64,000 nt of DNA from Candidatus Woesearchaeota archaeon (GTDB taxonomy: Archaea > Nanobdellota > Nanobdellia > SCGC-AAA011-G17 > ARS1403), in NCBI GenBank assembly GCA_018302705.1, contig JAGVZI010000007.1:1070-65069 (forward strand), read 5' to 3'. Position 1 is the first letter of the stretch; each line of letters begins with the position of its first letter. The translations under genes were made by a program, and so were the position numbers. Of the stretch, positions 33,526 to 60,206 are shown in pieces. The notes under the pieces are model-generated. The model did no database searches. It was not told the origin of the DNA and saw only the letters and a program-made list of their open reading frames with translations.

Positions 33526-33676
33526 GCGGGGATGCCGGAGTGGTCAAACACGAAAAACACAGAAGTGGACCTAACGGGCTAGGTTCAGGAAGAAAAAAAG
33601 AAGGCTGAGCTTAGGCCTACGCTGTGAGAAACCTAGTGGCTTAGTGCCTTCGCAGGTTCGAATCCTGTTCCCCGCA
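33526..33676 (+). tRNA. tRNA-Leu(CAG) with introns at 21/22 (33548..33573) and 37/38 (33590..33630)
   Basis: Removing both gives an 84-nt type II tRNA: acceptor GCGGGGA/TCCCCGC, D stem CCG/CGG, anticodon arm CTAGG-TTCAGGA-CCTAG. Confidence 0.88.
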
Positions 33677-34420
33677 AATCATTATCAAAAAAATCCTAAA
33701 CCACACAAAAATAAAAACTCCTAAAAAACTTCCGAGCAAGGAAATCAGCCAGTTGTTAAAAAGCTCGACAAGGTAGGAGCTGGCAAAAAGTAAAGCCCAT
33801 AATGATAAAAAGCTGGGAATAAAAATATAAAATTTCTTTACCGCCAATTTTATCCCTTTCAAAAAAGAATTAAGCACCTTATTATCAAGAGAAAAGTAGC
33901 TGAGATTAATCCAAACAAAGTAAAAAAACAAAATTAAAACCGCAGCAAACCTTCCATAACTAAACCCATATCTATAAAGTAGATAAAATGCACCGGCAAA
34001 AACCAAAAACCAGATTAGAGTAAGCAGGTAAAAATTCAGAAAGTATTTCAGATTATAGTCATGAAGCAGTTTTTTCTTATCAACAATGTTGGCACTCCAT
34101 TTCCAGAGAATGCCGTGAAAGAACCCGAAAAGAACAAAAGTAATTGCAAAAAACAAAATGGCAATTCTAAAAATCTTGCTCAGCAGCTCAGAAAGATAAA
34201 CCAAGCTCCTATATATATAGCCTGCATCAGCCCCTTCTTCAACAACGAATTCATCCTGGAAAGTTCTCAGTTCATTCATCTTTTCAGAGGCAGAAGTAAT
34301 GCTAACCATGGCGCTAACTGCCATCAACAGGAAGAATAAAAACTCCAATCCATATACGGCAAGAATCTTCTTATTATTCAATATTTTCCAGCTTTCCAGA
34401 AATAATTTTAAAAATTTCAT
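33641..34420 (-). CDS. Polytopic membrane protein (about 6 TM)
   Basis: Hydrophobic segments throughout; last codons overlap the tRNA-Leu 3' end antisense. Confidence 0.75.
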   Translation of the reverse strand: MKFLKLFLESWKILNNKKILAVYGLEFLFFLLMAVSAMVSITSASEKMNELRTFQDEFVVEEGADAGYIYRSLVYLSELLSKIFRIAILFFAITFVLFGFFHGILWKWSANIVDKKKLLHDYNLKYFLNFYLLTLIWFLVFAGAFYLLYRYGFSYGRFAAVLILFFYFVWINLSYFSLDNKVLNSFLKGIKLAVKKFYIFIPSFLSLWALLFASSYLVELFNNWLISLLGSFLGVFIFVWFRIFLIMICGEQDSNLRRH

Positions 34421-34427
34421 ATTAAGT

Positions 34428-37400
34428 TTATGTCGAAGCAACAGCGGTTAATTCTCTTCTCCAGGCTTCTGCATGTCCTAAAACAGCAGGAACATAATTC
34501 TGCGTTTCAGATGGCAATGAAGATTTGCATTCATTAAAAGGTTTACTTTGACATTTGCTATTAACCTTAGTTGGTCCAGCATTGTAAGCAGCCAGAGCTA
34601 ATTCAATGCTTTTATATTTGTCAAGCTGAATTTTGAAATACCTCACTCCAATGTAAACATTATCCTTCCAATTTGAACGGGATTTCTCTGGTGCAAATGG
34701 ATTTTCTGCAATTAATTCTAAGTTAACATCGGCCTCAGCATCGGGCATTATCTGCATCAATCCAACTGCCCCTGCTGGAGATCTTGCTTGTTTATTTCCT
34801 CCAGATTCTTGAGTAATCATTCCCAAAATCAAAGGCAATGCATTCTCATTTCCAAAAACCTCATTCACAGTATTCTTAATATAAACATAAGTTTCACCAC
34901 CAGGATTTTTAGTTTCTGTAAAAACCCCCCCAACTGTAGGTTCAGTAGAATACTCTTCTTGAATTTCAGGTGTAACAGGTTGGGCTGGGGCCGCAGGAGT
35001 AGCTACTGCAGGAATTACCTCTTTTCTAAGCACACATCTCCCATCCTGGCAGGCACTTCCTTCAGGGCAAAACACAGTCTCGGCAACACATTGTTCGCTT
35101 ACGCAAGAATACTCAATCAATTTTCTATCGCCATCGCTCCCGCAAGCCTCTCTCTCAACTTTAACACCGTTATCAGTATATATGCAAGCCTGTTTCTTTC
35201 CAATGTCTCTTCCGCCAAAGTCATTGCATCCGGAAAATGCAGGATCGTAAATCACAATGCTTTTTTCTTTTATTGAATTCGTAGTTCTGCTAGTCGCATC
35301 AGTGCATATCTGATCGCTCAAAGTTCCGCTTTTAATCAGGCTGAATTTTAGATTGTATTGATCCGTAGGAGGAACATCAACCCCGATTCTTGCTTCAGGA
35401 ATATTCCACACATTGAAATTAAGCCCGTCTTCAATATCATGCGCAATAAACCTCTTAGTTTCTCTAAAGCCACTGGCCCTGCCAAGGATTTCAACCTTGA
35501 TTTCAACATCTTTCTCAGGCCTTTCTATATCAATTAGATTTTCATTAACAACCTCTATCTTGTCGCCATATTTATATGCAGGAATATCAGAGCTAGCACC
35601 TTTAAAAGTAATATCCTTATTAAACACAGCCCTGCAATCACTCTTAACAGTTTCGCTGCTATAAGCAGTTCCTAAATCAGCAACATTAGGATCAGTTCCC
35701 TCTCTAAACTCCCTTACATTCGTTCTTCCATCTCTGTCATTATCTAGCAGGGCATCGTTTGCATCATTAGGATTCAACTTATTAGCATTCTCCCAATCAT
35801 CACTCATTCCATCTTTGTCAGCATCAGCAAAGTCATCCTCACCATATCCAGTAAGCTCTGCTATTATTCCGCTTCCTCCTCTTCCAGGAGGGAAGCAATC
35901 CTCTTTGGCTTCACTAGGAATATTAACGCAAGCCTCTGTGTAATCAACTTTATCCAAAAACTGCAGATACCCGCTGTCATGATCTCCTGCTCTGTCAAGG
36001 AAGATTTCTTTATTTAATAATTGGCTTCTTCCCCCGCCGGGATTCTTTAAATAAATCTCATACCTCATATTATCCCTTCCAGCCAATATCATCCAGTCAA
36101 TTTGGTATTCAAACACAGGCTCCTTCAATGGAGTTATATGACTCACTTTGGAATTCCAGTTAATGGAAACACTAGTCCCGATAAAGGGCCTGTTCAAATC
36201 AAAGTTTGCAAAAGTATCAATATTAGGAAGCCTTTTGTATATTGCCAATGAGCAGATAGTTTTAATAATCGGCAGTTCTGCATATCCAACACCGCCGCCA
36301 GCCCCGGTCCTGGCAAGCTCAGCCAAATCTCCTCGAGCAAATTCCTTGGCATCATCCTTGCCTTGCTTAGCAGCCCCCTTTAAACTGTCAGCTTCCCTTG
36401 CCTCCAAAAGCGAACCTTCGATTCCAGCTCCACCTAAGTTATTAGCAGATCCACTCCCAAACAATTTACCAAAAGCCTTTTTAATAAAACTAGTCCCGAA
36501 GAAAGCCTCTACTTCTTGTGTAACAAAAGTACAAATTCCATAATTCAATAATCTATCGCACTGCCCGGTAAATTTTCTTCCAGCCCTGGCATCATTCAAG
36601 CAGAAATTCCATTCCTGAGCAATCGCTCTTAGCTGATATAATTTAGTTAATATCCCACTAATGCAACCGCAACCAACACTCAAAAGCAAACTATCTTGGA
36701 TTCTCGTTGCTCCTTGTCCAAAAGTTATTGGTTGATTAATATTCTTCGGAATTCTTCTATCAGTTCCAGAAACAGTTTTTATTTCCCCCTTCTCATTCGT
36801 CTCCCAAACAGGCGTTTCCTTAATCCCGTCATTGTCCAAATCTAGTTTCTCCTGAATCTCCTCGGTTCCAATTTGAATATTCGCAACCCTGCACCAGTTC
36901 TTAGGGCAGACAGCAACAGCGCACATGCTCCTTCCAGAAATTACAAAGCTATTGCTTTCGCTCCTGCCTCTAGTTGTAAATGCAACCCCCCTCAAACCCT
37001 TAGGTCCGTACCAAATAAAATCAGCAAGGTCAAAAAAATTGCCTGCAAAATACTTTATTATCGGAGTAGCGAGCTTAGCAGCAAAAACAGCAGCAATGGA
37101 ATAAACGCACAGTTGAAAAGTAAGGCTGAATGCTTTTTCAAATTTAGGAATTAAATCCTCTGTGAATTTTATAATGTCTTCAGATAATTCAAGCCCGGCA
37201 TCAAGCGCAAATTCAGGAGGCTGCACAGCAACAGTGTCTATCGGAATATTAATAGTTATTTGATCTATTTCAGTCGGATATACAGGATCACAGCCAATCT
37301 TCTTCCCATTTTCATCTCTTTTAACTATGCATTGATTAGTCCTGACAGTGCAAGTAGTTTCAATCTCATCAATCCCGCTTATCCTGTCAGAAGGCAAAGA

Positions 37401-38045
37401 AGTCAAATCCTTTGCAACAACATCACCCTCTCCTCTTTTGAATACTCTGAACTCAATTAATCTCTTAGTAGTGTCCTTGGCATCCTGTGGAAGCACCATC
37501 ATTCTTGCATTCAAAAAGCTTCCAGGAATCCTTCTATTCTGCTCCCCGCTTCTGCTGACAATTCCAGTGCCAGAATCGCAGCTAACAAAGACATCTCCCA
37601 ATTCAACGTCTTCAGCTTCAAATCTGGAATTAAAAGCAAGCTTGATTGGCTGATAAACCAAAACACCATTTAGAGAATCAGTTAGCCAATTCACTTTCAA
37701 AATCTCAGGCTGCAATCCTCCATCTCTCGAAACGCTCCAGAAATCATATTTCCTGGCTACCTGATCAGGAGAGCATCCGCTGTTCAATTCTCCCCTTCCA
37801 ACATTGCTTCCACTAGTCCCCAGGCACAAGTCGCCATAAAGAGTGTCGTCGCATCTTAGCTGATTATATCCAGTTTTGCCTTCATGATAAGGATCATTTC
37901 TAGGCCTGTCACAAACACCGTCGCTATCAAGATCATATACATTGCTAGACTCAGGTTGGCTTTGTGATTGCGCAAAAGTAATTGAAGTATTTAATGAAAT
38001 CCCGATTATCAAAGACATTAAAAACAAAGCAGCTACTCTCTTCAT
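34428..38045 (-). CDS. Large secreted protein with Ca-binding DxDxDG repeats and C-terminal lytic transglycosylase (SLT) domain
   Basis: Signal peptide; DADKDGMSD/DNDRDG repeats; ITQESGG, GAVGLMQIMP, ALAAYNAGP, ETQNYV motifs at about 34450..34900. Confidence 0.88.
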   Translation of the reverse strand: MKRVAALFLMSLIIGISLNTSITFAQSQSQPESSNVYDLDSDGVCDRPRNDPYHEGKTGYNQLRCDDTLYGDLCLGTSGSNVGRGELNSGCSPDQVARKYDFWSVSRDGGLQPEILKVNWLTDSLNGVLVYQPIKLAFNSRFEAEDVELGDVFVSCDSGTGIVSRSGEQNRRIPGSFLNARMMVLPQDAKDTTKRLIEFRVFKRGEGDVVAKDLTSLPSDRISGIDEIETTCTVRTNQCIVKRDENGKKIGCDPVYPTEIDQITINIPIDTVAVQPPEFALDAGLELSEDIIKFTEDLIPKFEKAFSLTFQLCVYSIAAVFAAKLATPIIKYFAGNFFDLADFIWYGPKGLRGVAFTTRGRSESNSFVISGRSMCAVAVCPKNWCRVANIQIGTEEIQEKLDLDNDGIKETPVWETNEKGEIKTVSGTDRRIPKNINQPITFGQGATRIQDSLLLSVGCGCISGILTKLYQLRAIAQEWNFCLNDARAGRKFTGQCDRLLNYGICTFVTQEVEAFFGTSFIKKAFGKLFGSGSANNLGGAGIEGSLLEAREADSLKGAAKQGKDDAKEFARGDLAELARTGAGGGVGYAELPIIKTICSLAIYKRLPNIDTFANFDLNRPFIGTSVSINWNSKVSHITPLKEPVFEYQIDWMILAGRDNMRYEIYLKNPGGGRSQLLNKEIFLDRAGDHDSGYLQFLDKVDYTEACVNIPSEAKEDCFPPGRGGSGIIAELTGYGEDDFADADKDGMSDDWENANKLNPNDANDALLDNDRDGRTNVREFREGTDPNVADLGTAYSSETVKSDCRAVFNKDITFKGASSDIPAYKYGDKIEVVNENLIDIERPEKDVEIKVEILGRASGFRETKRFIAHDIEDGLNFNVWNIPEARIGVDVPPTDQYNLKFSLIKSGTLSDQICTDATSRTTNSIKEKSIVIYDPAFSGCNDFGGRDIGKKQACIYTDNGVKVEREACGSDGDRKLIEYSCVSEQCVAETVFCPEGSACQDGRCVLRKEVIPAVATPAAPAQPVTPEIQEEYSTEPTVGGVFTETKNPGGETYVYIKNTVNEVFGNENALPLILGMITQESGGNKQARSPAGAVGLMQIMPDAEADVNLELIAENPFAPEKSRSNWKDNVYIGVRYFKIQLDKYKSIELALAAYNAGPTKVNSKCQSKPFNECKSSLPSETQNYVPAVLGHAEAWRRELTAVAST

Positions 38046-40033
38046 TCAAACCTCACCCCTAATTTATCAAAATGTTTTTCACTTAGTGATTTAACATCCG
38101 AATTCTCAATATAGTCCTCAAAGTTTCTCGGAATTCCTCTTGATAATGCCAGCACAATAATTTTGTCTTTTTCAAGATCATCTAGGCTGATATAAGTCTC
38201 AAAATCTGCGCCTCCAAGGAAAACGCCTTCAACTTTTTGATCAGGAACCTCTCTCCCTTGAAATTCACCTCCAGGGATCGTAATCTCCTCATTAAGAATC
38301 AAATCAACAGCAACATTGTATTGCTCCTCAAACAGCAAAGGAGTTTCTAAAATCTCGTTCCCGTTAAACAAAAGGGCAAAACCTTCCTTAAAGCTGCCTC
38401 TTCCAAGGTCTAAAACAGTGAATCTAACGCTTGCCTGCTCATTCTCCATCAGCTCTCTCTCAAGAACATTCCCGTCTTTCAATTCCAAAACTCTGACTTC
38501 AACTTTTTTATTGACATAGGGCTTCATCGCAGCAAAAACGCTGTTCCTTCCAGTATTATACGTATCCAATTCCTGGTAAAACTCGCCGTATCCATCCTTG
38601 GACAAAATAATCTCTCCTCCCCTGCATAAAGGAAATTCCTCTTCTAAAACAGATCTTCCATTTTCAATTTTAGTTTTGCCTACAACGCAGTTATTAACCC
38701 CGCAGACATACACAACATTTACATCATCCAATGCATTGCTTGTCAGGGCATCAATGCTTTCCACGACAACAGCCTCGCTTAATTTTTGATTCTCATCGCA
38801 GAATAATCCGCCAGCTTCATCCTCCACGCTAACAACGTCGCCATCAATAAGTCTCCCTCCAAAGTTGTCAATTATATAAATCTCAATTGGAAACCTAAAT
38901 GCAAAATTGTCATTCTCTAAATTCACCATCAGCGGATATTGCAAAGTATATCTAAAATTATGATTTGTAAAGCAAAACAGCGGGATAAAAGGCAGCCCCA
39001 GTTTCAAGGTGCTGGGCTTCAACACATTCCCGTCTCGGGGATAAACATCCAAAAAGAACGCCCATCCAGGATTATAATTAAAACTCACAATTGTATCATC
39101 GTGCTCTCCAGAAAAAACATCCCCTATAATCAAGCTGTTATAAAACTCTCCTCTTACATCATTATTTGCTCCTTCAACTCTAAAAAGCCTGGAGATAGTT
39201 CCAAGATATTCCTCTATATTTTCCCTGACTTCATTCAATGTCCAAGTATTAGGATTGCATTCATAATTAAACTCGGCAATTGGAGGTATTGAAATCAGCG
39301 AATTTTTATCCTTGGCATAAGCAGCTATCAAATCAATTGTCATGGCTTCAAAAGGTGCATTCCCGATCTCAGATCTTCTAAGCTCTCTGTTAACAATGTC
39401 AACAGCCATATTATATAGCATCTTCAAATCAATTGGAACATCTATTCCAATGTAGTCGGAAATAGGAAAAATATTTTCTTTAATACCAACGTCGATTTCG
39501 GATTTTAATTTCACAGAAATCTTCCCATTTAATATTCCAGCTTCGCTTTCAATCTGTTTGGTGCTAAAGTCATAATCAGGAAATTCATTAAAGCCACATT
39601 CACTATTAAATCTCCTGTCAATATATCTCTCAAGTTGATCTTCCATTTCTTGAATAGTAGGGACATCAACATTTCCCCTTCCATAAATCCAATAAGGCGC
39701 CTTGTAAATGGGATCAGTCCGCAGGTAAGCTCTTGGATTAAAGCTTATAGAATTAGGAATCTCTATATATCCGCCTTGAAATCCCAGCAGCTCAACTCCA
39801 TCCCTCGCAATTCTCTCAATACAGTTATTAGCATAGTCTACAACGCCCTTAGCCTGCTCAGGGACAACGCTTACTCCAAACAGCTCACTCTCAATTTTCT
39901 GCCTGAAGCTCTCGTTTTGTATATACCCGATAAAGAATGCAGCAAATAATATGACAATCCCGGCAATAATAAATAAGGTAACCTGCCCTCTTTTCCCGAT
40001 CCCTCTTTTCCCGACGATATTCATTTTATTCAT
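38042..40033 (-). CDS. Class III signal peptide (prepilin-like) protein, 663 aa
   Basis: KRG/QVTLFIIAGIVILF N-terminus; related to 54604..55404. Confidence 0.8.
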   Translation of the reverse strand: MNKMNIVGKRGIGKRGQVTLFIIAGIVILFAAFFIGYIQNESFRQKIESELFGVSVVPEQAKGVVDYANNCIERIARDGVELLGFQGGYIEIPNSISFNPRAYLRTDPIYKAPYWIYGRGNVDVPTIQEMEDQLERYIDRRFNSECGFNEFPDYDFSTKQIESEAGILNGKISVKLKSEIDVGIKENIFPISDYIGIDVPIDLKMLYNMAVDIVNRELRRSEIGNAPFEAMTIDLIAAYAKDKNSLISIPPIAEFNYECNPNTWTLNEVRENIEEYLGTISRLFRVEGANNDVRGEFYNSLIIGDVFSGEHDDTIVSFNYNPGWAFFLDVYPRDGNVLKPSTLKLGLPFIPLFCFTNHNFRYTLQYPLMVNLENDNFAFRFPIEIYIIDNFGGRLIDGDVVSVEDEAGGLFCDENQKLSEAVVVESIDALTSNALDDVNVVYVCGVNNCVVGKTKIENGRSVLEEEFPLCRGGEIILSKDGYGEFYQELDTYNTGRNSVFAAMKPYVNKKVEVRVLELKDGNVLERELMENEQASVRFTVLDLGRGSFKEGFALLFNGNEILETPLLFEEQYNVAVDLILNEEITIPGGEFQGREVPDQKVEGVFLGGADFETYISLDDLEKDKIIVLALSRGIPRNFEDYIENSDVKSLSEKHFDKLGVRFE

Positions 40034-40155
40034 TTCTTCCTGCTAACTTTCTCCTTGATTAATTCAATCAGCTCTGTATTAATATCTCTTTTAATAGAAT
40101 CCTTGAATTTCTCCCAAAGTTTCTCGTCTTCAATAAGAAGAAGGTATTTTTTCAT
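40030..40155 (-). CDS. Small RHH-like protein (41 aa)
   Basis: Not in ORF track; MKKYLLLIEDEKLWEKFKDSIKRDINTELIELIKEKVSRKK; ATGA overlap with the prepilin-like gene. Confidence 0.65.
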   Translation of the reverse strand: MKKYLLLIEDEKLWEKFKDSIKRDINTELIELIKEKVSRKK

Positions 40156-40195
40156 TAATTTATCAGTTGTTTTGCAGTATATAAATTTTTCTTAG

Positions 40196-40219
40196 TAACT
40201 TACTAACTTACTAACTTAC
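40196..40219. repeat. TAACTTAC x3 tandem repeat in a divergent promoter region
   Basis: Perfect 8-mers at 40196, 40204 and 40212, just upstream of a minus-strand TATA-like box. Confidence 0.75.
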
Positions 40220-40419
40220 TAAGTAGGATTGGTTAGGAAATAATCAAAAAATTTAATCACTCTTACACTCTCCTTAAGTTAAAAATATATAAACTTCCAT
40301 AATTTGGTATTATGAAGGAAGGGTGAAAAAAATAAGTTATTATGCGCCAGGAGATCAAACAAAAGATTTATATACTATATTATTACAATAATATTATAGT
40401 ATTATCATATTAATATAAA

Positions 40420-41692: not shown

Positions 41693-41809
41693 AGCTCGCC
41701 TGTTGATTTCGTCATTTTGTTAAAATTGTTAAACAAGCCAATCAAAAACAAGCTTTAATGTAGATAAGCAATTCCAGATAGTATCCTAAAATTAATTTTT
41801 CAAAATTCT

Positions 41810-42241
41810 CTAAGTACAAATCTTGAATTCAACTTTTCCGTTCCTCAAAATAAACGGGCTAGCGCTTATGCTGCTCTTGCAATCATTACCTAGAGAAACA
41901 AGATCATGATCTCCACTCACAATCAGTCTATATTTTTCATTGGTAAATATTCCTTGGGTAGGATCCTCAAGGTAATACATCAAATTGCTGCTAACATCAT
42001 CGCAATTATTAGTTAAGATACATTCTTCGATCAAGTCTTTCATCTGCCTTTTCTCATCATCGTCTTCAACATGCACTTTCATCAGGGCATTCAAAGCGCT
42101 ATTAGCTCTCAAGTTGCTCCTAATTAACCTGCTTTCATTTTCATCATCAGAGCTTTTAATTTTTACAAAAAAAATCAGTGCAAAAACAAGCAGTAGAACA
42201 ACTACAACCAATCCTATAATCTCGCCCTGCCCTCGCTTCAT
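41810..42241 (-). CDS. Class III signal peptide (pilin-like) protein
   Basis: MKRG/QGEIIGLVVVVLLLVFALIFF. Confidence 0.78.
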   Translation of the reverse strand: MKRGQGEIIGLVVVVLLLVFALIFFVKIKSSDDENESRLIRSNLRANSALNALMKVHVEDDDEKRQMKDLIEECILTNNCDDVSSNLMYYLEDPTQGIFTNEKYRLIVSGDHDLVSLGNDCKSSISASPFILRNGKVEFKICT

Positions 42242-46348: not shown

Positions 46349-46427
46349 GGTATTTTATATAAGGAAACTATTTATAAATGTTTCCTTCCATATAAGCATA
46401 ACTGTTATTAGATAATGAATCTGTCCA

Positions 46428-49400
46428 TTAAGGATTAATCCTCACTACTCCCATCTCATTGCCCCACAAATCCTCGCATCTGAAATAATAGCTTCCGCTA
46501 GTAGTAATAAGTTGCTTAGCCCTATTTGTAGTATCCTTTCCAACACCTTGCCATCGGCTTTCATCAGCAGGAACAGAATCGCCAGTTGCAATTTCACACT
46601 CAGCCTCCTCGCTGACAGTTATATACTTGTTGCCTTCAACAGTAACTATCTGCCTTATCTCAGGAGCAATTTTATCTTGCAGAACATTGACAGCAAAGTC
46701 CTGCTCAGCAACTTGCCCAGCGCTATCGCTGCATTCAGCTTTAATGTTGTAAACACCATCGGCATTGACACTAATATTGGCAGTATGCACAAGCGCTCCA
46801 GATCCTAAATTTATTTTAGCTGCATTAATTCGAGCAGAGCCTATTGTAGTGTAAGTGCATTTAACGTCGCCAACACCCCCAACAGTCGCTGTAGCAGTTT
46901 CAATTATCCTTTTTCCATAATTTCCAACAGGAAGAGAGAATAAAATGCTCAGCTCTTGAGACTCAGGAACTTCGATATTGAAATTAATTCTTCTTAATGG
47001 GGTTAGTCCGTCAGAAGCTTGGCATCTAATATAATATTCATGACTTCCAACATTAAGGTTTCTCAAAATTTTACTATATCTTGTAGCGCCTCCGAATACC
47101 CTTTCATAATCCATAGCCCCATCATAATCATTCGGATCAAATCTCTCTTCTAGCTGTCGAGTAAATCCTTTTCTATAATAGCAAGTTGCAATTCCATTTT
47201 GATCAGGGCCGCCTCTCAATTCCAGGAAAAGCTCAGGTCTTATTGTTTGTACATTACCGCTAGGACCTACCTGTCCCAAGATTAAAGATGAAACAACAAC
47301 ACCAGGTTGACCTCCAGGCTTGCTATTAGGATCTAAAGGATTTGTTCCAGCATCAACTTCTTCTCCGTCGCTAAATCCATCTCCATCGCTATCTCTTCTA
47401 TCAGGATCAGTGCCGATCTCTTCTTCCTCATCTTTTGTCAATCCATCTCCATCATTATCAGAATCGCCATCAGTAGTAATAGAAGCAACCAACACTCTCA
47501 ACAATCCAGATTTTTTATCTCCAGCTTCAACATAGTACTCGCTTCTAGGATCAAATCCATCATCCACTTGAATCGCAGCAGTCCATTCAATAATAGCACC
47601 CTCAGGAGCAGGAATTATAATTCTTTTTTCATCTACAGTATCGTCTATCTGGCCCCAGTCAGTTATAAACACATCCTTCTCTTTTATTTTATAGTTAATA
47701 GCATCTCCTGCTCTGCAGTTATTTCCCTCTATTAATATGTAAGACTTACTTCCACTTTGAATGCTTGCAATATTAGTCCCGCTTATATCCTTCCAGCTCA
47801 CTGATTTAACAGAGCAAACATCTCCTGTAGGCGGCGGTGTTTCTGGTGGCTCTTCCCCACCAGCTGAACTTACACTTATTCTTATTGTTGCCTCTGCTCT
47901 TTCTCCATTTCTATCTGCTGCTCTAACTTTAGCTGTATAACTTCCAGCATCTGAATAAGTATATCTTATTGAACCGCTAGTTATTATTGTTTCAAATATT
48001 CCGTCGTTATTAAAGTCCCAAGAATATGTAAAAGGTGAATTTCCATTTGTAACTGCCGTCGTAAACTCTACTTGTAATGGTGCATCTCCGCTTGTTGGAT
48101 TAGCAGCTATTTGAATATTAAATATAGTGTCTTCTTCCTCTTCTTTAATCTCTTCACATACATTTCCTATCCCATCATTATCGCTATCAGCTTGATCAGC
48201 ATTGGCATTATTTGGACAATTATCCCTGTTATCTGGAATGCCATCACTATCAGTATCTGCATTAAAAGAATTTATCTTGACAGAAGCAGTATCATCATCT
48301 CTCAACTTTCCATCAAAAACAGTCAACACAACTCTATAATCGCCAGCAGCAGTATATTCGTTGCTTGGCAAAGCTCCGCTTCCTCTTTTACCGTCGCCAA
48401 AGTCCCAGTCATAAGTCAAAGGATCTCTATCAACATCATTGCTATTGCTTCCATCAAAGTAAACTCTAACTCTTCCATTAGCATTAAGAGTTGCTTCCTT
48501 ATCGTCTCCAGCATTAGCAACAGGAGCCTGATTGCCAGAAGTATCATAAGGATTCACTTGAACATTTGCCTTATCTTCATTACTCAAACCGCCTCTATCA
48601 GTTACTTTCAAAGAAACATCGAATACATCAGCTTTCCTATATTCATGTTTCACTACAGACCCTCTTGCTTCAGCACTTCCATCGCCAAAGTTCCAAGCAT
48701 ATTCCAAAGGCAATCCTTCAGGATCATTACTATTTCTCCCATCAAAAACCACTTCAACTCTATTATTTGCATCTAAAGATACATCCTTATCTTCGCCGGC
48801 ATTAGCAGTAGGAGGATCATTTTCAAGATGATTATAAGCATTAATTTGTATGCTAATCTCATCAGTATCTCTCCCGCCTTTATTATCGTCGACAGTCAAT
48901 ACAACATCATATTTTCCATTAAGATCGTATACTTTACTTGGTCTCACTCCCCTTAATCCATTGCTCCAAGAATATGTTAATTGATCATTATCAGGATCGC
49001 TACTTCCGCTTCCATCAAACTGCACAGTAATTCTATCATCAGAATTTAAAGAAACTTTTTGATCTTCGCCAGCATTAGCAACAGGATTATTATTTATTCC
49101 ACCACCAATAACATTTATAGTAGTAGTTCCTTCTCCAACGTCACCATCATTATCTCTTACTAAAACTTTTACAGTGTAACTACCCGCCTCGCTATAAACT
49201 CTAGTAGGATTTGAATTACTTGAGTCTACAACTTCATAGTTTCCATTATTATCATAATCCCAAGAATATTTATAAGGAGCATTTCCATCCTTGACAGCAA
49301 CGCTGAATCTCACTGTCAAAGGAGATTTTCCAGAAGAGGGATCAGCACCTACAGAGAGAATTTCAGGAACTGTGTCAATACCTCCAGGATTAGTTCCGCG

Positions 49401-52400
49401 AGGATCTACATGAATATTTAGAGTGTCTTCAGCTTGTTTATCCTTGCTATCCTTAACAACAACTTTGGCAACATAATCTCCATCTGCAGTATAGGTACGA
49501 GATTTAATGTCAGGCACATTACTATACTCAAAATTCCCATCATTGTTAAAGTCCCATGAATATCTATAAGGGGCATTTCCATTTGTTGTAGCAACATTGA
49601 ATGTAACTGCCAAAGGAGCATCTCCAGAAGTAGGTCCTCCTCCCAATGTAACAACAAAGTCTCCTTCTGTTGGAGGTGTTGTTACAGCAGGACAATTATC
49701 TCCAATATCAACACAATTATTATTCGAATCATAAATTCCAGGACAACTATTTACAGTGCAACTTCCTCCAGGTATTGGCTGAGTAGAACTTCCGCAAGAA
49801 CTAACATCAAATCCACTGCAATCACTTTCGCATCTCAAACTTCCAGCACTAAATCCAAAATTACTGCAACTTTTTCCATTTAATAAACTGCCATCACAAG
49901 TCTCTCCAGCATCTAATCTATCATTGTCACAATCAGCAGGATTTTGAGGAGGTTGTTGAGTCGGACAATTTGGTTCGGTTTTAATGCAAGTTAAGGCATT
50001 ATTATATCTCCCTTCGCAATTATTAGCATCCTTACAAACTTCTCCCGCTTTAGCACCAGGAGGAACAGGTTTCTGTTTTATTTTAATTATCTGGGATTTC
50101 TTCTGAGCAGAAGCGCTTATTATTTCACCATTAGCAGCAACTAGTTCAGGATCCTCATCTCCATATCTTCCATTTGCATCTTTCTGCCATGATAAAGTTA
50201 TAAATTCAACATCGTAGTAACCGCCACCACTACTTTGTCTATCTAATTTCAATGTCCTCGGGAAATCCATAAAAGAAATCTGCTCATAAACATCCTCTCC
50301 CAAAACTCTCTCATAATCATACAAATCAATTACAACATCAACATTATTGCATTGCTCATTCCCTTTAACTTTTAATGCAATTTCAGTTCCTTCTTCTATT
50401 GAAGCTTCATTGGAATAAGGCTGACCTCTTTCTAAATCATACCATTTTACTTCTGTTATCTCGCAACCAGCAGACAATCCACCACCAACATCAGAAACAC
50501 AAACTCCAGCATTATTAGGATCATCATTAAATCCAGTAGCACACCCATATCCGCATTTATTCTCTCCACTCCACTTGCATCCAGAATCTTTAGCGCTTAA
50601 GCAGACAGCTTGGTTCTGATCAAAATAATCATTATCACATTTTATTGTGCAACTTCTCTTCTTAACACATGTTCCATCATTATTAATGCCTTCAGGAGTT
50701 TCAGAACAGGTCTCGCATAAAGCCTCAATGCATTGTCCAATCTGTCTGCCATTTTGAGTATTCTGATCATTGCAGTCCAAGGCATCTTCAACACCATCAT
50801 TTTCCTGATCGCTCAGGCATAAAGGATTTGGCTCTGTTGCACAATAAGAAGTTCTATATTCCTTAATAACACTAGGGCAATTTGCAGTAGAGCAGTAACC
50901 ATTAACACAATTCTGTCTTACACTATTTAGTTGTTTGTTGCATAAAAATTCCTGGCTTTGAACTTCAGCGCAATAAGCATCTCCAGGACACTGAAGACAT
51001 ACAGTAGCAGCATTATCGGCTGTGCAAGCAACAGCGCCTACAGGAGGGGCTATATATTTTTCAAATTTAATATTTAAAACAGCATTAGCAACATTCTCAA
51101 GATCATCTATAGCCTCGCATCTGACAGTGATTCGGTAATCTCCATTTGTCGAAAAAAAATCAAAGCTCTGTTTATGTATGTTCCTATCCTCATACCCCGG
51201 ATCAGCATCTGTGCCGAAAGGGACTCTCTGGATAGATACATCATCATAAATGTACGAATAAGAACACATAGCTCCCCGGCCCATGCCCCCAGAAGTTCTT
51301 ACCTCCAAGACATCAGTCTGGCGGATAGTAGCCCCTTCAGTTGGGCTAGTTATATCTATTTGTAATGGAGTAGCTCTATTAATAACATAGCCGTAAGGAA
51401 CCGGATTCCTATTATTCCCCTCATCCTTGCATGCAAAATAATAATTATTAACTCCGTCATTGACATTAACATCTAAACTGCAGGATTTAAAAAATGAACC
51501 GCTATATCCAGAAGGTAAATTAGAGGATCCTTCAGCAGAAATATCTCCACAATTAACTTGTTGCTGCATAGCATCAAACCCAATAAATTCATCGCTATAT
51601 CTGCAGCTCTCAACACCACTTAAATCACTTACAATAAATCCAATTGTAACAGCATTAGATTCAGAACTAGGCAAAGTATAAACATCGCTGCTTTGACCTT
51701 CATCTTTAGGATTGAATAAATGGATAACAGGAGGATCTGTATCCCCAACACCGTCTGTCAATCTAAATCTAACAAAATAATCTTCATTATTATCATTCCC
51801 GAAGAAATCGCTGCATTGAACGTAAAACACACAACCATCATCATCAGAGCATCCTAGCTTATCTTTTTCAGTCCAATCATCAAATGAAAATGGATAAAGA
51901 TGGTCTTTCCCATTGTACAAAGTTTGCAATAAGCCAACCTTTTTATCTCTCATATTTTCTAAGATTTTATCATATTTATTATCTTCACTCATCGAACTAG
52001 TCACGCCCTCCTGCAAATTAACTCCAAACAAGCCTCTTTCTGGAATAGGGCTCATTCTACAGTTTGAAACTTTATCTGTTGTTAAAATTAAACCATATTT
52101 CTTATCCTCAACAAGGTCTTTCACATCGCATCCGTTAATTCCAGGAGGAATCCCGCTGGGAAGAGTGCCTGCTCCTTGGCCTTGAATTCCAGTATCAGGA
52201 TTATAAGTTGGAAGCAAAGCAAATGATCTAGGCAAAGCTTGTCTACCTCTATTAAATTGTACAATATCCTGTTTGACTTGCATAGTTCCGATATCAACCA
52301 CACCGCATGTATTTATTAGAGGGGGGTTTTTATCAGCAATAGCTTCATCTAAACAAACCCCTTCACTGGCATCCCTAACTGTTGGCTCAAAAACACAGTT

Positions 52401-52652
52401 TTTTCCTATTGATCTGCAAGTATATTCACTGCACTTAGCCCCGAAAGATTTACTACCACAAACATTACAATCTCCCGTGTCTGTAGGATTATAAGGAGTA
52501 CAGCTTCCGCCTGAGAAAGCTCCTATAAGCCCACCAACAAGGCACCCCCCTCCCATGACAATAGCATCATCCCAGCCCATATAAGAATAGACACTGCCGC
52601 TCATAATTATCAAGATTAAAATTCCAGTTCCGAATTTAAATTTCTTATTCAT
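46428..52652 (-). CDS. Giant surface protein (2074 aa) with Cys-rich, Ig-like, about six PKD domains and DxDxDG repeats
   Basis: Signal peptide; repeated GDAPL-x-V-x-F and YSWDF-x-DG PKD motifs (about 47880..49660); CDNDRLDAGETCDG repeat; DSDGDGFSD. Confidence 0.85.
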   Translation of the reverse strand: MNKKFKFGTGILILIIMSGSVYSYMGWDDAIVMGGGCLVGGLIGAFSGGSCTPYNPTDTGDCNVCGSKSFGAKCSEYTCRSIGKNCVFEPTVRDASEGVCLDEAIADKNPPLINTCGVVDIGTMQVKQDIVQFNRGRQALPRSFALLPTYNPDTGIQGQGAGTLPSGIPPGINGCDVKDLVEDKKYGLILTTDKVSNCRMSPIPERGLFGVNLQEGVTSSMSEDNKYDKILENMRDKKVGLLQTLYNGKDHLYPFSFDDWTEKDKLGCSDDDGCVFYVQCSDFFGNDNNEDYFVRFRLTDGVGDTDPPVIHLFNPKDEGQSSDVYTLPSSESNAVTIGFIVSDLSGVESCRYSDEFIGFDAMQQQVNCGDISAEGSSNLPSGYSGSFFKSCSLDVNVNDGVNNYYFACKDEGNNRNPVPYGYVINRATPLQIDITSPTEGATIRQTDVLEVRTSGGMGRGAMCSYSYIYDDVSIQRVPFGTDADPGYEDRNIHKQSFDFFSTNGDYRITVRCEAIDDLENVANAVLNIKFEKYIAPPVGAVACTADNAATVCLQCPGDAYCAEVQSQEFLCNKQLNSVRQNCVNGYCSTANCPSVIKEYRTSYCATEPNPLCLSDQENDGVEDALDCNDQNTQNGRQIGQCIEALCETCSETPEGINNDGTCVKKRSCTIKCDNDYFDQNQAVCLSAKDSGCKWSGENKCGYGCATGFNDDPNNAGVCVSDVGGGLSAGCEITEVKWYDLERGQPYSNEASIEEGTEIALKVKGNEQCNNVDVVIDLYDYERVLGEDVYEQISFMDFPRTLKLDRQSSGGGYYDVEFITLSWQKDANGRYGDEDPELVAANGEIISASAQKKSQIIKIKQKPVPPGAKAGEVCKDANNCEGRYNNALTCIKTEPNCPTQQPPQNPADCDNDRLDAGETCDGSLLNGKSCSNFGFSAGSLRCESDCSGFDVSSCGSSTQPIPGGSCTVNSCPGIYDSNNNCVDIGDNCPAVTTPPTEGDFVVTLGGGPTSGDAPLAVTFNVATTNGNAPYRYSWDFNNDGNFEYSNVPDIKSRTYTADGDYVAKVVVKDSKDKQAEDTLNIHVDPRGTNPGGIDTVPEILSVGADPSSGKSPLTVRFSVAVKDGNAPYKYSWDYDNNGNYEVVDSSNSNPTRVYSEAGSYTVKVLVRDNDGDVGEGTTTINVIGGGINNNPVANAGEDQKVSLNSDDRITVQFDGSGSSDPDNDQLTYSWSNGLRGVRPSKVYDLNGKYDVVLTVDDNKGGRDTDEISIQINAYNHLENDPPTANAGEDKDVSLDANNRVEVVFDGRNSNDPEGLPLEYAWNFGDGSAEARGSVVKHEYRKADVFDVSLKVTDRGGLSNEDKANVQVNPYDTSGNQAPVANAGDDKEATLNANGRVRVYFDGSNSNDVDRDPLTYDWDFGDGKRGSGALPSNEYTAAGDYRVVLTVFDGKLRDDDTASVKINSFNADTDSDGIPDNRDNCPNNANADQADSDNDGIGNVCEEIKEEEEDTIFNIQIAANPTSGDAPLQVEFTTAVTNGNSPFTYSWDFNNDGIFETIITSGSIRYTYSDAGSYTAKVRAADRNGERAEATIRISVSSAGGEEPPETPPPTGDVCSVKSVSWKDISGTNIASIQSGSKSYILIEGNNCRAGDAINYKIKEKDVFITDWGQIDDTVDEKRIIIPAPEGAIIEWTAAIQVDDGFDPRSEYYVEAGDKKSGLLRVLVASITTDGDSDNDGDGLTKDEEEEIGTDPDRRDSDGDGFSDGEEVDAGTNPLDPNSKPGGQPGVVVSSLILGQVGPSGNVQTIRPELFLELRGGPDQNGIATCYYRKGFTRQLEERFDPNDYDGAMDYERVFGGATRYSKILRNLNVGSHEYYIRCQASDGLTPLRRINFNIEVPESQELSILFSLPVGNYGKRIIETATATVGGVGDVKCTYTTIGSARINAAKINLGSGALVHTANISVNADGVYNIKAECSDSAGQVAEQDFAVNVLQDKIAPEIRQIVTVEGNKYITVSEEAECEIATGDSVPADESRWQGVGKDTTNRAKQLITTSGSYYFRCEDLWGNEMGVVRINP

Positions 52653-54607
52653 CTACTGTAGCCACCTATCAAAGTTCCTGGATTGGATCCATCTGGACTG
52701 TTAGCCATTATCCAACCACCGCCCTCTCTCTGGGCCCACAAATTACCATCAGAATCCTTCACTGCATCCCCAGTAAGACTAACAGGCTTTCCTGCAGGAA
52801 TTGTGTCTGTAATATCCCCATCCATAGAAGGTTCATCTCTAATATTCCTCTCTCCTTCGAAAACCAAATTATAAACCTCTTCAGAAGTTTTAGCAACAAT
52901 AATTGTCTTGTAAGCAACATCTATATGGTCTGGGGTGTTCTTAACAACAGTTCTAACCAAACTATTGCTTCCAGGCACTTGTGGCACAACAGAATTTCCT
53001 AAAGACGAGCTTGCACTTTGAAACGGAGGAGCTTGAGGAGCTTGAGTAGGGCTTATGTATCCAGAAAAGGGATCTGCAGGGGGGGCATAACCTTCGATAG
53101 CTCCCGTATTCGGAATACCTCTAGCAGCATTTATAGGAGGACTGCTAAAGATAGTCTCCCATCCTCCCCCTTCATGTAAACCTAAGCTTCCGCCAGTTAA
53201 ATATAAAGCCTCAGCAACAACAGCTCCTGCAACGCATCCGATACCAGCTCCCTTCCACCCGCTACCGCCTTTAAAGCTACAATCACCTTTTCTATAACAC
53301 TCCTTGCTATCGCAAAAGTTACCCCAACCATCGCCACAATTCCCGCATTTTAACTCATAACCGCCAGTAGTTAAAGCATTATCATAAAAAACACTGCCTA
53401 AAGCATATCTCGGCCTACAGTTTTTCCCGTCTATGTCATAATTATCAACTAATTCAGCTTTACTAAACCCTTCTTTATATAAATAATAATCTGTCTGCTT
53501 TTCAGTCAAAGTCGTTCTCAGTGCTGTCGTCCTAAATAGATTAGTAGGTAACCCTCCGGACATACTTTCAACAACATCATAAATACCATCTTCAATATTA
53601 TCTAATGCTTCATCTAATTTTCCAACTTGTTTAAAATCTCTTGGAGCACACATAGCCCATTTTTCATCCTCTGTTCCAAGCATATAATATTCATCTTCCC
53701 AATTTTCAAAGCAAACCCCTTTTTTGCCCCTAAACAAATCCCCTGGTTCAATATCTAATTCCCCATTAACACAGCTGTATTTATAGTATCTCTGACCTGC
53801 AGAATATTTCTGAAAAACATCTTTTACATCGTTTGACCTAAATGTTCCTTCGGTTCTACGAAACTCTTGAAGTCCAATTATCTCTTTCTTGGAATATAAT
53901 TTCCATCCTTCTCCATTTTCAGTTGCATAAACAACGCACCAGCTCTCCCCATGAAGCCTTTTGTCCTTTCCTTCTTTAATATCATCATCAGTTAAACCCA
54001 ACATTGCCGGGGTTATCTCATTAAAGATTATATATGGCTGACCAAGACCTACATCTATTTTTCTAATAATAGCATTTTCATACAGGTTACAAGAAGTTTT
54101 AACACATTCAGGTTTCCCACTTACTTCAGAACAAACCTCCTCATTTTCAACACATTCTTTAACCTTTCTAACATACTCATTAGTATTTGATTTAACTTCT
54201 ATAACGCTATCCTTATCCACACTGCACACATTTCTAGTTAGCTCATTAAGAGCAGGAACAGGATTCCTCTCTATATGCTTTTCAGCACATTCATTAATGT
54301 CCCTAACAGCGGCATCAAATTCCCCCCCTAACTTTTCGCACCTTGATGAAGAGATTATACTGCATCTGCTAGAAAGTCTGAAGAAACATCCCCCCAACCG
54401 GCACTGATTATAAGGAGAAATCCCCTCGGCATTGTAACAAGCCCCTCCTCCTAGATTAGTTCCGCCTATAGCAATACAATTATTATTATCAACATTAGAA
54501 CTGCAGTATCCATCATTTTCTAAACAACAAACTCCGGTGCTTTGGGCATCAGCATAATTAATTAAAGCTAAAAATACAATCAATCCCAATATTAATTTAT
54601 ATCTCAT
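52649..54607 (-). CDS. Secreted Cys-rich protein with glycine-rich helix and C-terminal SH3b-like domain
   Basis: Signal peptide; GAGIGCVAGAVVA; C-terminal NIRDEPSMDGDITDTIPAGKPV...GNLW...GGWI. Confidence 0.72.
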   Translation of the reverse strand: MRYKLILGLIVFLALINYADAQSTGVCCLENDGYCSSNVDNNNCIAIGGTNLGGGACYNAEGISPYNQCRLGGCFFRLSSRCSIISSSRCEKLGGEFDAAVRDINECAEKHIERNPVPALNELTRNVCSVDKDSVIEVKSNTNEYVRKVKECVENEEVCSEVSGKPECVKTSCNLYENAIIRKIDVGLGQPYIIFNEITPAMLGLTDDDIKEGKDKRLHGESWCVVYATENGEGWKLYSKKEIIGLQEFRRTEGTFRSNDVKDVFQKYSAGQRYYKYSCVNGELDIEPGDLFRGKKGVCFENWEDEYYMLGTEDEKWAMCAPRDFKQVGKLDEALDNIEDGIYDVVESMSGGLPTNLFRTTALRTTLTEKQTDYYLYKEGFSKAELVDNYDIDGKNCRPRYALGSVFYDNALTTGGYELKCGNCGDGWGNFCDSKECYRKGDCSFKGGSGWKGAGIGCVAGAVVAEALYLTGGSLGLHEGGGWETIFSSPPINAARGIPNTGAIEGYAPPADPFSGYISPTQAPQAPPFQSASSSLGNSVVPQVPGSNSLVRTVVKNTPDHIDVAYKTIIVAKTSEEVYNLVFEGERNIRDEPSMDGDITDTIPAGKPVSLTGDAVKDSDGNLWAQREGGGWIMANSPDGSNPGTLIGGYSR

Positions 54608-55404
54608 TTCGCCACAACAAATACAAATACCTTTCCTGAGTCTCCTAATTGTCCCTCCTCAGCTGGAAAATCTTCTCTATTGCCTATAATCACAAGCCTT
54701 CTACCCTTATGATTATCAACGACCAGGCAGATTACATCTTCACTCTGACTTCCACAGTAAATAGCAAGGTCTTCTATTTGACCAGTAATAACCCCAGTCA
54801 CTATCTCTCTCGCCAAATTATACATCTTGCCAAAATTATCCTCTAAGTTAACACTAAACCTGTTAATCTCGCTTGTAAGACCACCCTTACTAATTTTGAC
54901 AGGATATGTAATTGTTACAGAAACTATTCTATCCCCAATAATGGTCCCAGCATCGATTCCTGCTTCATCCTCTTCTATATCAAAGTCATCTCTAAAGAGA
55001 TCTAGGCTACAACCATCGTTAATCAAAAAATATTCAATACTCTGTGAAATAAATTCTGGAGGTGGTTGGCCAGTAATAAGATAATTATCCCCTGCACTAC
55101 TAACTAAAACATTATAGTTAGAAAAGATAGCATCATTTTTATCCATACTGGGCCTTCCCCCATTATTTTTTAGATTCTCCACTATATTCTCTAATTTTTC
55201 CTTAACACATCCCTCAATGTATTCCTTAATAGGCTCCACCTGTGCAGTTGTTATCCTCCTTCCTATCTGCACATCTTCCCTCGTAAAAAACACAACCAAG
55301 ACAGCAATCAAAACAATAGCAACCCCGGCAATAATAAATAAAGTAACCTGCCCTCTTTTTCCAATTGAATTTTTCGTGAACGTTTTTCTAAAAGGCTCTA
55401 TCAT
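54604..55404 (-). CDS. Class III signal peptide (prepilin-like) protein, 266 aa
   Basis: KRG/QVTLFIIAGVAIVL; first codons nearly identical in DNA to 38042..40033. Confidence 0.8.
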   Translation of the reverse strand: MIEPFRKTFTKNSIGKRGQVTLFIIAGVAIVLIAVLVVFFTREDVQIGRRITTAQVEPIKEYIEGCVKEKLENIVENLKNNGGRPSMDKNDAIFSNYNVLVSSAGDNYLITGQPPPEFISQSIEYFLINDGCSLDLFRDDFDIEEDEAGIDAGTIIGDRIVSVTITYPVKISKGGLTSEINRFSVNLEDNFGKMYNLAREIVTGVITGQIEDLAIYCGSQSEDVICLVVDNHKGRRLVIIGNREDFPAEEGQLGDSGKVFVFVVAK

Positions 55405-55538
55405 TTTTTCCTGCTCCTCTCAACTTTATCCTTAACAGCCTCGTTAATGAATTCTATCAAAGTTTTATTCTCCAGAACAGCAGCTAATTTAGCCTTTTTG
55501 TGCAGCTCATCCTCGACTTCTATATTCACTCTTGTCAT
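55401..55538 (-). CDS. Ribbon-helix-helix (CopG-like) protein (45 aa)
   Basis: Not in ORF track; MTRVNIEVEDELHKKAKLAAVLENKTLIEFINEAVKDKVERSRKK; ATGA overlap. Confidence 0.78.
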   Translation of the reverse strand: MTRVNIEVEDELHKKAKLAAVLENKTLIEFINEAVKDKVERSRKK

Positions 55539-55545
55539 AGATTCT

Positions 55546-55722
55546 CTATGTTTTCTCCTTTATTTTTTTGCTCGCATACCTTACGAAGTATGAAAACACT
55601 AAAGCGATTAATGTCAATCCCCAATCAGTGGCGCTGAAGCATTCTGTTCCTATCACCCTTGTAAAGACAAACAGCAATACTAGCGAATCTATCACTCTCG
55701 ATAGAATCTCTAGTTCATTCAT
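55546..55722 (-). CDS. Small 2-TM membrane protein (58 aa)
   Basis: Manual translation MNELEILSRVIDSLVLLFVFTRVIG...LTLIALVFSYFVRYASKKIKEKT. Confidence 0.55.
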   Translation of the reverse strand: MNELEILSRVIDSLVLLFVFTRVIGTECFSATDWGLTLIALVFSYFVRYASKKIKEKT

Positions 55723-55838
55723 TTTATTATAATAGTCACTAATCCATAAATTGCTATTCCCAAAACTATCAGGGCCATAATATAAGAGATTATTTTTAAG
55801 ATCCTGTTTCTCCTCTTTATTTCATTCCTCCTTGCCAT
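55719..55838 (-). CDS. Small single-TM protein (39 aa)
   Basis: MARRNEIKRRNRILKIISYIMALIVLGIAIYGLVTIIIK; ATGA overlap with the next gene. Confidence 0.55.
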   Translation of the reverse strand: MARRNEIKRRNRILKIISYIMALIVLGIAIYGLVTIIIK

Positions 55839-55961
55839 TTTAATAAATAACTTAGCTAACTAAGCTTATTTAACTTATTTAGTTTATTAAGCTTATCAAT
55901 TTTAGTTATATAACTTACTTTTAATGGCCTTAACTGCTATATAAATCTTATTCAATTATTT

Positions 55962-60200: not shown

Positions 60201-60206
60201 TTTGAC

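Follow-up and report, generated by a model that had tools for sequence, protein, structure and literature searches.

The block of genes described here lies on a contig of Candidatus Woesearchaeota archaeon (assembly GCA_018302705.1, contig JAGVZI010000007.1, positions 1,070-65,069). It occupies positions 33641-55838 of this stretch of 64,000 nucleotides (nt), which was analysed at its full length and is called the window below. The block encodes a large secreted protein with a C-terminal SLT domain (B), two further secreted Cys-rich proteins (L and K), and six pilin-like proteins with class III signals (M, C, E, F, G and I). The operon is chromosomal and conserved in a clade of Woesearchaeota, and we think it rather likely that it encodes a cell-surface apparatus that engages bacterial cell walls. 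That the organism is a DPANN archaeon (Woesearchaeota) is supported by the archaeal genes of the window, together with homologues named Woesearchaeota.

The block is an almost unbroken, operon-like series of minus-strand genes, only D being on the plus strand. Stop and start codons overlap as ATGA at seven junctions (39-aa/58-aa, RHH/M, M/L, L/K, J/I, F/E and C/B), and a putative AT-rich promoter region (55839-56050) is located upstream of the 39-aa gene. From this first gene onwards, the features are:

55719-55838, minus strand: protein of 39 amino acids (aa) with a single transmembrane (TM) segment, first gene of the block, with an ATGA overlap with the 58-aa gene
55546-55722, minus strand: small hydrophobic (TM) protein of 58 aa
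55401-55538, minus strand: ribbon-helix-helix-like (RHH) protein of 45 aa, with a DNA-binding look judged by eye only; it ends in an ATGA overlap with M
54604-55404, minus strand: M, 266 aa, pilin-like with a class III signal (GKRGQVTLFII), translationally coupled to L
52649-54607, minus strand: L, 652 aa, secreted with a Sec signal, 26 Cys, C-terminal SH3b-like domain
52664-52873, minus strand: SH3b-like domain of L (aa 579-648), assigned from profile and fold evidence
46428-52652, minus strand: K, giant of 2074 aa with a Sec signal, 68 Cys, 6 PKD domains, TSP3 repeats and Ig-like ends
45044-46348, minus strand: J, AAA_14/DUF4143 ATPase, an insertion, missing at the same position in the related loci L004, L008 and L017
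44559-45047, minus strand: I, 162 aa, small pilin-like protein with a class III signal (MKRGQTQ)
43665-44558, minus strand: H, ORF6N-domain protein, an insertion found in none of the related loci
42722-43672, minus strand: G, 316 aa, pilin-like with a class III signal (NKKGF), the large member of the quartet I, G, F and E
42238-42744, minus strand: F, 168 aa, small pilin-like protein with a class III signal (NRGQLEIG)
41810-42241, minus strand: E, 143 aa, small pilin-like protein with a class III signal (MKRGQGEII)
40469-41692, plus strand: D, DUF234/ATPase_2 gene, N-terminally truncated, within a 1776-bp insertion that divides the block
38042-40033, minus strand: C, 663 aa, class III signal (GKRGQVTLFII), TM helix and stalk domains, translationally coupled to B
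34428-38045, minus strand: B, 1205 aa, Sec signal, 32 Cys; a scaffold (aa 1 to ~1006) with TSP3 repeats, a Pro/Ala/Thr linker and the SLT domain
34542-34844, minus strand: SLT domain of B (GH23, family 1 lytic transglycosylase), aa 1068-1168, with E1080-S, GLMQ and AYNAGP
33641-34441, minus strand: A, six-TM protein, 266 aa from a TTG start or 259 aa from an ATG at 34420

A preliminary description of this DNA had already listed a mostly minus-strand locus with many ATGA overlaps, six class III-signal proteins, a 2074-aa protein rich in PKD domains and Cys, a 1205-aa protein ending in an SLT domain, and a six-TM protein. All of these were found again. Not foreseen there were the unrelated insertions D, H and J, nor that the SH3b-like end of L is not universal among orthologues.

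The comparison across relatives that had been proposed as a check shows that the gene order is kept in at least five other Woesearchaeota contigs (L001/L005, L004, L008, L017 and L021). An L-like and a K-like gene are followed by four small pilin-like genes, a C-like, a B-like and an A-like gene, and then by LSM, S8e, TFIIB and EndA, as in the window. The four small pilin-like genes of the related loci encode, in order, proteins of 141-183, 297-328, 164-174 and 159-169 aa. In a Hainich groundwater contig (L029), the order M-like, L-like, K-like is kept, including the M/L overlap of 4 nt. Full-length orthologues of B share 37-61% identity, and its homologues are named Woesearchaeota or Nanoarchaeota. 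An A-like gene always comes right after the SLT-type giant (L001, L002, L004, L017 and L021). A itself has six hydrophobic segments in the hydropathy profile and belongs to no known Pfam family. When compared with the TM proteins that follow distant giants, it gave one marginal match (probability 63%), and no match for the others.

Three genes interrupt this pattern. D and H are missing from all related loci and J from most of them, while in L005 the slot between K and I holds a different archaeal ATPase (DUF234, 6123-7445). The D-bearing gap (40034-41809) measures 1776 bp here versus ~100-190 bp in L004 and L005. D, H and J are thus secondary insertions, and all three are inserted in this genome only. 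Two of them join their neighbours with exact ATGA or zero-gap junctions. Together with the different ATPase of L005, this suggests a site at which cassettes insert preferentially.

The exchangeable hydrolase end of B

The C-terminal domain of B (aa 1068-1168) matches Pfam SLT (PF01464) with 72.3 bits (E 3e-20, cut-off 21.3) and carries the motifs ITQES (with E1080), GLMQIMP and AAYNAGP. E1080, S1081, G1095, M1097 and Q1098 are invariant across eight orthologues, and E1080 aligns with the catalytic Glu478 of Escherichia coli Slt70. The nearest solved relatives, found with a profile of the SLT family against the PDB, are Slt70-type structures (E 6e-9). Among NCBIfam models the best match of B was the flagellar assembly lytic transglycosylase BB0259, at 52.8 bits far under its cut-off of 234. 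The SLT domain is intact by its motifs, and the enzyme looks active.

The remainder of B was searched without the SLT domain (residues 27-1030) against 1.84 billion representative proteins. HMMER results were flooded by TSP3 repeats; after these were discarded, about 15 clusters aligned over the whole body. According to BLAST, the shared scaffold ends at about residue 1006, with a '...CQDGRCVL' motif just before a Pro/Ala-rich linker. What follows the linker differs among relatives. In a tally that is small (contig scans of genomes and metagenomes gave five and eight loci), SLT occupies the C-terminal slot of 14 relatives, namely the close orthologues P0001-8, P0051, P0053 and P0058, and the metagenome loci L020-22. 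In P0050, which lies within the fully syntenic locus L017, the slot holds an Amidase_3 domain (103 bits), and in P0057 a Peptidase_M23 domain (72 bits, with visible HxxxD and HxH motifs).

Three mechanistically unrelated hydrolases (SLT, Amidase_3 and M23) thus occupy one scaffold in the same operon, which argues strongly that bacterial murein is their target. Judged from these sequences, bacterial peptidoglycan is very probably what B-type proteins attack. The swapped ends are a much stronger argument for murein than the SLT match by itself, and they largely remove pseudomurein, a glycan of the archaeon's own envelope, or chitin from the candidate substrates.

With a conserved N-terminal body and unrelated C-terminal enzymes among its homologues, B shows the pattern by which polymorphic effector families are recognised. 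No small gene that co-varies with the hydrolase type, as an immunity gene would, was seen; A belongs to the same six-TM family after the SLT and the Amidase_3 versions.

A more distant arrangement was observed in L015 (4140-12506), in which a C-like gene precedes a giant of 2788 aa with Metallophos, 3D (MltA-type, above threshold) and C-terminal GDSL/SGNH hydrolase domains. This giant is followed by a 268-aa TM protein. A cassette of pilin-like carrier, giant enzyme and TM protein may therefore be a general module with varied cargo.

Pilin-like proteins and their presumed Cys-rich partners

The six pilin-like proteins begin with GKRGQVTLFII (M and C), MKRGQGEII (E), NNRGQLEIGI (F), NKKGFAVMF (G) and MKRGQTQQIF (I). 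In each, [KR]G plus Q or F is followed by a helix of about 20 aa with a hydropathy of 2.6-3.6. When all six frames of the 64-kb window were scanned for this motif, seven open reading frames (ORFs) came up, six of them being these proteins, and the class III-type N-terminal motif is kept in every orthologue examined. The [KR]G-Q motif presumably resembles that of euryarchaeal EppA-type substrates. It is this N-terminal motif, and nothing else in the six sequences, that suggests a pilin status.

C and M are paralogous across their first ~150-170 residues (E 2e-8). Each is directly upstream of, and overlaps, a gene for a Sec-secreted Cys-rich protein with a wall-directed module (M/L and C/B). The AlphaFold model of C, made from 28 sequences (pLDDT 80.5), has a TM helix at residues 17-37, an alpha/beta domain up to about residue 400, and tandem beta-sandwiches at 420-615. 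In Foldseek searches it matched CnaB/transthyretin-like stalk domains of Gram-positive (sortase) pilins and adhesins, and the S-layer stalk protein SlaB. From the model, C is best described as a membrane-rooted stalk with a class III signal. Another C-like gene, with 53% identity, was encountered on a 5.4-kb contig (L007, CAYWKL010000054.1) binned in a metagenome-assembled genome named 'uncultured Gammaproteobacteria bacterium'. This is probably mis-binning; co-abundance with a bacterium, if present, might be a clue to a partner.

Sec-type signal peptides (cleavage sites located by eye) and many Cys are found in B, K and L, none of which has a membrane anchor of its own. Their signals, Cys content and Ca-binding TSP3 repeats argue that they are extracellular, and the lack of an own anchor fits retention by partner proteins. 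K is, by its domains, a PKD/TSP3 giant of adhesin type, in which Pfam recognised PKD_4 in six stretches (237.6 bits), PKD (158 bits), and TSP3 Ca-binding repeats, next to the 68 Cys. Its residues 1-540 and 1788-2074 are conserved, and the PKD middle is variable.

L contains a conserved CGxCGDGxxNxC...ECxxxGDC motif and an amphipathic helix, followed by a Pro/Ser linker and the SH3b-like domain. SH3_3 was the best family for the C-terminal domains of all four orthologues carrying one, below threshold (best E 1.4e-5). A profile of these domains found SH3b wall-binding domains in the PDB (8b2f, E 0.005); the single sequence of L gave no match there. The AlphaFold model of L has a low overall pLDDT (45.8), and its sole confident part is aa 579-648 (pLDDT 75-85). 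With this part, Foldseek retrieved almost only SH3b wall-binding domains (9kz1, 5d74, 5leo and 1r77). The top matches were the SH3b domains of PlySb, Ly7917, lysostaphin and ALE-1, and muramidase SH3-like domains, with probabilities of ~1.0, marginal E values of 1e-3 to 0.1, and TM-scores on the target of up to 0.63. From the profiles and the model, the SH3b-like fold at the end of L is accepted.

Each of L and B contains a conserved hydrophobic segment (aa 457-477 in L, aa 305-330 in B). These were considered as membrane spans, a reading by which the SH3b and SLT domains would be cytoplasmic. It was rejected; orthologues carry Lys, Glu or Arg at these places, and the flanks are Cys-rich. The segments are probably buried or amphipathic helices of secreted proteins, and the L domain is probably extracellular. 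Homology between L and B was also rejected (profile-profile probability 10%).

K and L share one further trait. The mature N-terminus of K (aa 21-55, 52490-52590) reads MGWDDAIVMGGGCLVGGLIGAFSGGSC and is followed by a C..C...C.EY.C...G..C.F motif. In L (aa 420-480, 53180-53330) a similar Cys motif comes first and is followed by GCVAGAVVAEALYLTGGS. Thus, a Gly-rich hydrophobic segment lies beside a similar Cys knot in both proteins, in opposite order, and both are kept in orthologues. A docking or membrane-active role of the segment is possible.

The block is surrounded by housekeeping genes. In the window these are TFIIB, S8e, a tRNA-intron endonuclease, PCNA, an intein-bearing FtsZ, and an intron-bearing tRNA-Pro, and the left flank (10 kb beyond the window) also consists of housekeeping genes. 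The sequence is present in groundwater and aquifer-sediment metagenomes. The FtsZ gene (7788-10025, plus strand) encodes 745 aa with an intein carrying LAGLIDADG endonuclease domains (Tubulin, Intein_splicing and FtsZ_C), and the tRNA-Pro(GGG) (13573-13667, plus strand) is 95 nt long with an intron apparently present. Directly upstream of the promoter region of the block, a two-gene cassette (56053-56908, plus strand) is maybe a toxin-antitoxin pair of the HEPN/NTase type; the match of its second gene to Polbeta nucleotidyltransferase is weak (22.8 bits, under the cut-off). A second co-directional set of surface-type genes lacking Pfam matches occupies 59712-63996 (minus strand). It encodes a 498-aa protein with the repeated Cys/Thr/Ser-rich unit 'GYY..DGT.DC.A.G..Y.S...NS..RTQC..NS.T.GATTS', and proteins of 157 aa and more than 583 aa with fibre-like repeats rich in Asn, Thr and Ile. 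About 7 kb to the left of the window lies a gene for a 172-aa Exosortase_EpsH-like protein of the archaeosortase type (L028, 17627-18145). No PGF-CTERM-type sorting signal was obvious in B, K or L.

A candidate surface apparatus and its rivals

The M/L and C/B overlaps and the strict synteny at 37-60% identity argue for a joint function of the coupled genes. The reading we favour, with some reserve, is that of a surface apparatus directed at bacterial walls. The six pilin-like proteins would be processed by the prepilin peptidase of the cell and inserted by type IV machinery, and would then stay in the membrane as stalks or start the assembly of a short type IV filament or tip complex. In number and size pattern, the quartet I-G-F-E is reminiscent of the minor pilins with which bacterial type IV filaments are started and capped, and may act likewise. 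M and C would serve as carriers or stalks for L and B, respectively, and the three secreted proteins (B, K and L) would be retained at the surface by the pilin-like proteins. Adhesion to the partner cell could then come from K and the SH3b-like domain, and the terminal hydrolase of B would open the bacterial sacculus locally at the contact site. Such an opening could bring the membranes into close contact, let cell material be taken up, or lyse the cell. The outcome may be episymbiosis, predation or scavenging. The assembly ATPase, platform protein and peptidase would have to be coded elsewhere in the genome.

The preliminary description had pictured a DPANN contact or penetration apparatus aimed at bacteria. 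The DPANN affiliation, the intact SLT domain, the murein target indicated by the Amidase_3 and M23 swaps, and the conserved operon link between pilin-like and SLT genes speak for this picture, but its pilin part found no match in fold or family. Several observations weigh against such an apparatus. None of the six proteins matched a pilin or class III family in Pfam or NCBIfam (E <= 0.1-1), the profiles of the four small families (I, G, F and E) retrieved neither a pilin nor any detectable relative from the PDB, and the C model gave no fold match to type IV pilins in Foldseek. Class III signals also occur on archaeal surface proteins that do not form pili. As the preliminary description had stated for the window, an assembly ATPase and prepilin peptidase are lacking: Pfam scans found no T2SSE/FlaI, FlaJ/TadC or A24 peptidase in the 44 window ORFs, nor in the 10 kb to the left.

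The wall-directed modules have their own weak points. The SH3b-like end claimed for the 652-aa protein stands by its fold and PDB profile, but L stayed under the Pfam cut-off for SH3_3 (PF08239; 15.7 bits for the whole protein and 20.2 bits for the domain alone, cut-off 27). Homologous loci keep the SLT and SH3b-like domains in part: six scaffold relatives have no recognisable C-terminal domain, or no extension, and the SH3b-like end is present in four of seven L orthologues and missing in three. Furthermore, the block is split by the 1.8-kb insertion with its opposite-strand gene, and every sequencing run containing the sequence was of DNA and none of RNA.

The missing pilin fold (C model and PDB profiles) and the missing assembly genes (window and 10 kb to the left) speak for another reading, in which B, and perhaps L and K, are free or loosely bound bacteriolytic or scavenging enzymes. 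With them the archaeon would compete with bacteria, prey on them from afar, or feed on dead walls. The pilin-like genes would then encode ordinary membrane-anchored surface proteins, or serve a separate adhesion function in a shared operon. Killing by archaeal peptidoglycan hydrolases is documented, prominently in Nanoarchaeota sensu GTDB (PMC12352652), and Sec signals without an own membrane anchor, as in B, K and L, would suit free proteins. Yet the tight M/L and C/B coupling and the strict synteny at 37-60% identity point to a tie between these enzymes and the pilin-like proteins. Moreover, a diffusible lysin needs neither a conserved scaffold of ~1000 aa nor a PKD/TSP3 giant, and contact-dependent use would be more economical for ultra-small cells with reduced genomes. 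We regard free enzymes as an unlikely, though serious, explanation. A hydrolase aimed at something other than murein, such as a glycan of the own envelope, the pseudomurein of a methanogen host, or chitin-like polymers, seems very improbable to us. GH23 holds chitinases and lysozymes as well, and Woesearchaeota have been proposed as partners of methanogens. Against this, relatives fill the same slot with Amidase_3, which cleaves the amide bond between N-acetylmuramic acid (MurNAc) and L-Ala, and with M23, which cleaves peptide cross-links, and only murein has all three bonds. The set of E-S, GLMQ and AYNAG motifs is that of family 1 lytic transglycosylases, whose nearest structures here are of the Slt70 type, and their 1,6-anhydro product requires the C6-OH of MurNAc, which is missing in the talosaminuronic acid of pseudomurein.

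A viral source is hinted at by the SLT domain, which is 30-41% identical to phage tape-measure and tail proteins and also matches 9b45 gp41, and by the ORF6N and AAA ATPase genes within the block. The block could be left over from a virus or another mobile element, perhaps as a tail-like module that pierces walls. We find this scarcely credible, given that the same chromosomal spot beside housekeeping genes is occupied in several species, that capsid, terminase, portal and integrase genes are absent, and that G+C is not deviant; on these grounds a prophage origin was rejected. In addition, the ORF6N and ATPase genes are missing from related loci, and are hence secondary insertions.

Within the favoured reading of a wall-engaging surface apparatus, a more specific form can be imagined. 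The locus could encode a cross-domain 'breaching' organelle of Woesearchaeales, in which the minor-pilin-like quartet primes a short type IV filament or tip, M and C each dock one Cys-rich secreted protein, and B serves as a delivery arm. Its murein hydrolase (glycan cutter, amidase or cross-link endopeptidase) would be exchanged between lineages, and so match or out-evolve the walls of various bacterial hosts. We put this forward tentatively, and lean somewhat against it.

Known systems and the meaning of the locus

Large extracellular SLT proteins and suggested bacterial hosts were reported for Woesearchaeota and Pacearchaeota by Castelle 2021 (PMC8204110), citing Rinke 2013 and Castelle 2015, and 'predatory' Woesearchaeota with GH23 giants by Vigneron 2022 (PMC9723730). 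In other archaea, the killing of bacteria by peptidoglycan hydrolases has been demonstrated, and Nanoarchaeota are rich in such enzymes (PLoS Biol 2025, PMC12352652). That large SLT proteins imply bacterial partners in Woesearchaeota and Pacearchaeota is already published. Pilins or an operon are not mentioned in PMC8204110, PMC9723730 or PMC12352652, and the amidase and M23 are not in PMC8204110. No paper describing a DPANN locus with pilins and a peptidoglycan hydrolase was found in a search with incomplete journal coverage, so that an earlier description is possible. The operon architecture and the hydrolase swapping appear undescribed. AR20, from the 2015 work of Castelle, is reportedly an earlier example of a large SLT protein.

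The SLT giants of Castelle and Vigneron belong to the same lineage as B, and are likewise large, secreted, C-terminally equipped with SLT/GH23, and proposed to act on bacterial walls. There they were treated alone, whereas B is one gene of a conserved block of ~15 genes, and its end is exchangeable. B fits fam00969 of Castelle 2021 by description (1205 aa, signal peptide, SLT and lineage), not by a cluster model. Similarly, the hydrolases in PMC12352652 are bacterial-type enzymes that archaea aim at bacteria, but they consist of compact catalytic and wall-binding modules, unlike the 1200-aa scaffold in a pilin-like operon found here.

The four small prepilin-like genes, one of them larger, and the accompanying large non-pilin proteins of adhesin type recall the minor-pilin/tip-adhesin operons (FimU-PilVWX-PilY1, GspH-I-J-K and the archaeal Epd-type). 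In contrast to these, the locus has no pilin match in sequence or fold, no major pilin, ATPase, platform protein or peptidase, and its partner proteins are Cys-rich giants with a murein hydrolase. Class III-signal proteins of archaea can also be devices for surface presentation and not filaments, as in the Sulfolobales bindosome (BasEF/BasABC). No Bas homologues were found here, however (F versus BasB gave a non-significant 14 bits), and the cargo does not consist of sugar-binding proteins.

Bacterial trans-envelope lytic transglycosylases (VirB1, EtgA, FlgJ/BB0259 and PilMx-type) are likewise SLT-family enzymes encoded together with surface-filament or secretion genes. Those enzymes open the sacculus of their own producer. 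Because an archaeon is not expected to have a sacculus of its own, the target of B is likely foreign. Polymorphic toxins and lysins (Rhs, CdiA, T6SS/T7SS effectors, phage endolysins and tail lysins) are likewise built from a delivery scaffold at the N-terminus, a linker, and a C-terminal 'warhead' that can be exchanged. Endolysins typically carry wall-binding modules of the SH3b type, and L has an SH3b-like end. Unlike polymorphic toxin systems, the locus contains none of their secretion systems, and an immunity gene would be unneeded in a producer without the target. A is probably not the usual immunity partner, because it is kept no matter which warhead precedes it.

The question whether some DPANN archaea live on bacteria, and not on other archaea, has so far been argued mainly from single SLT genes. 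With this locus it becomes concrete and testable, since a complete and conserved gene set is defined around the enzyme, comprising pilin-like anchors, adhesin-type giants, an SH3b-like module and a membrane protein. That three murein hydrolases of different chemistry replace one another is difficult to account for if the real substrate is anything but bacterial peptidoglycan. Activity and binding can be assayed with small domains suited to expression (SLT, Amidase_3, M23 and SH3b-like), and the surface proteins could offer handles for imaging or for fishing out the partner. With this locus, the concept of swappable C-terminal 'warheads' known from bacterial effector systems applies to archaea as well. 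If the 'breaching' organelle were true, archaea would possess a pilus-anchored equivalent of polymorphic effector systems, and it would provide a molecular basis for the episymbiosis or predation of archaea on bacteria.

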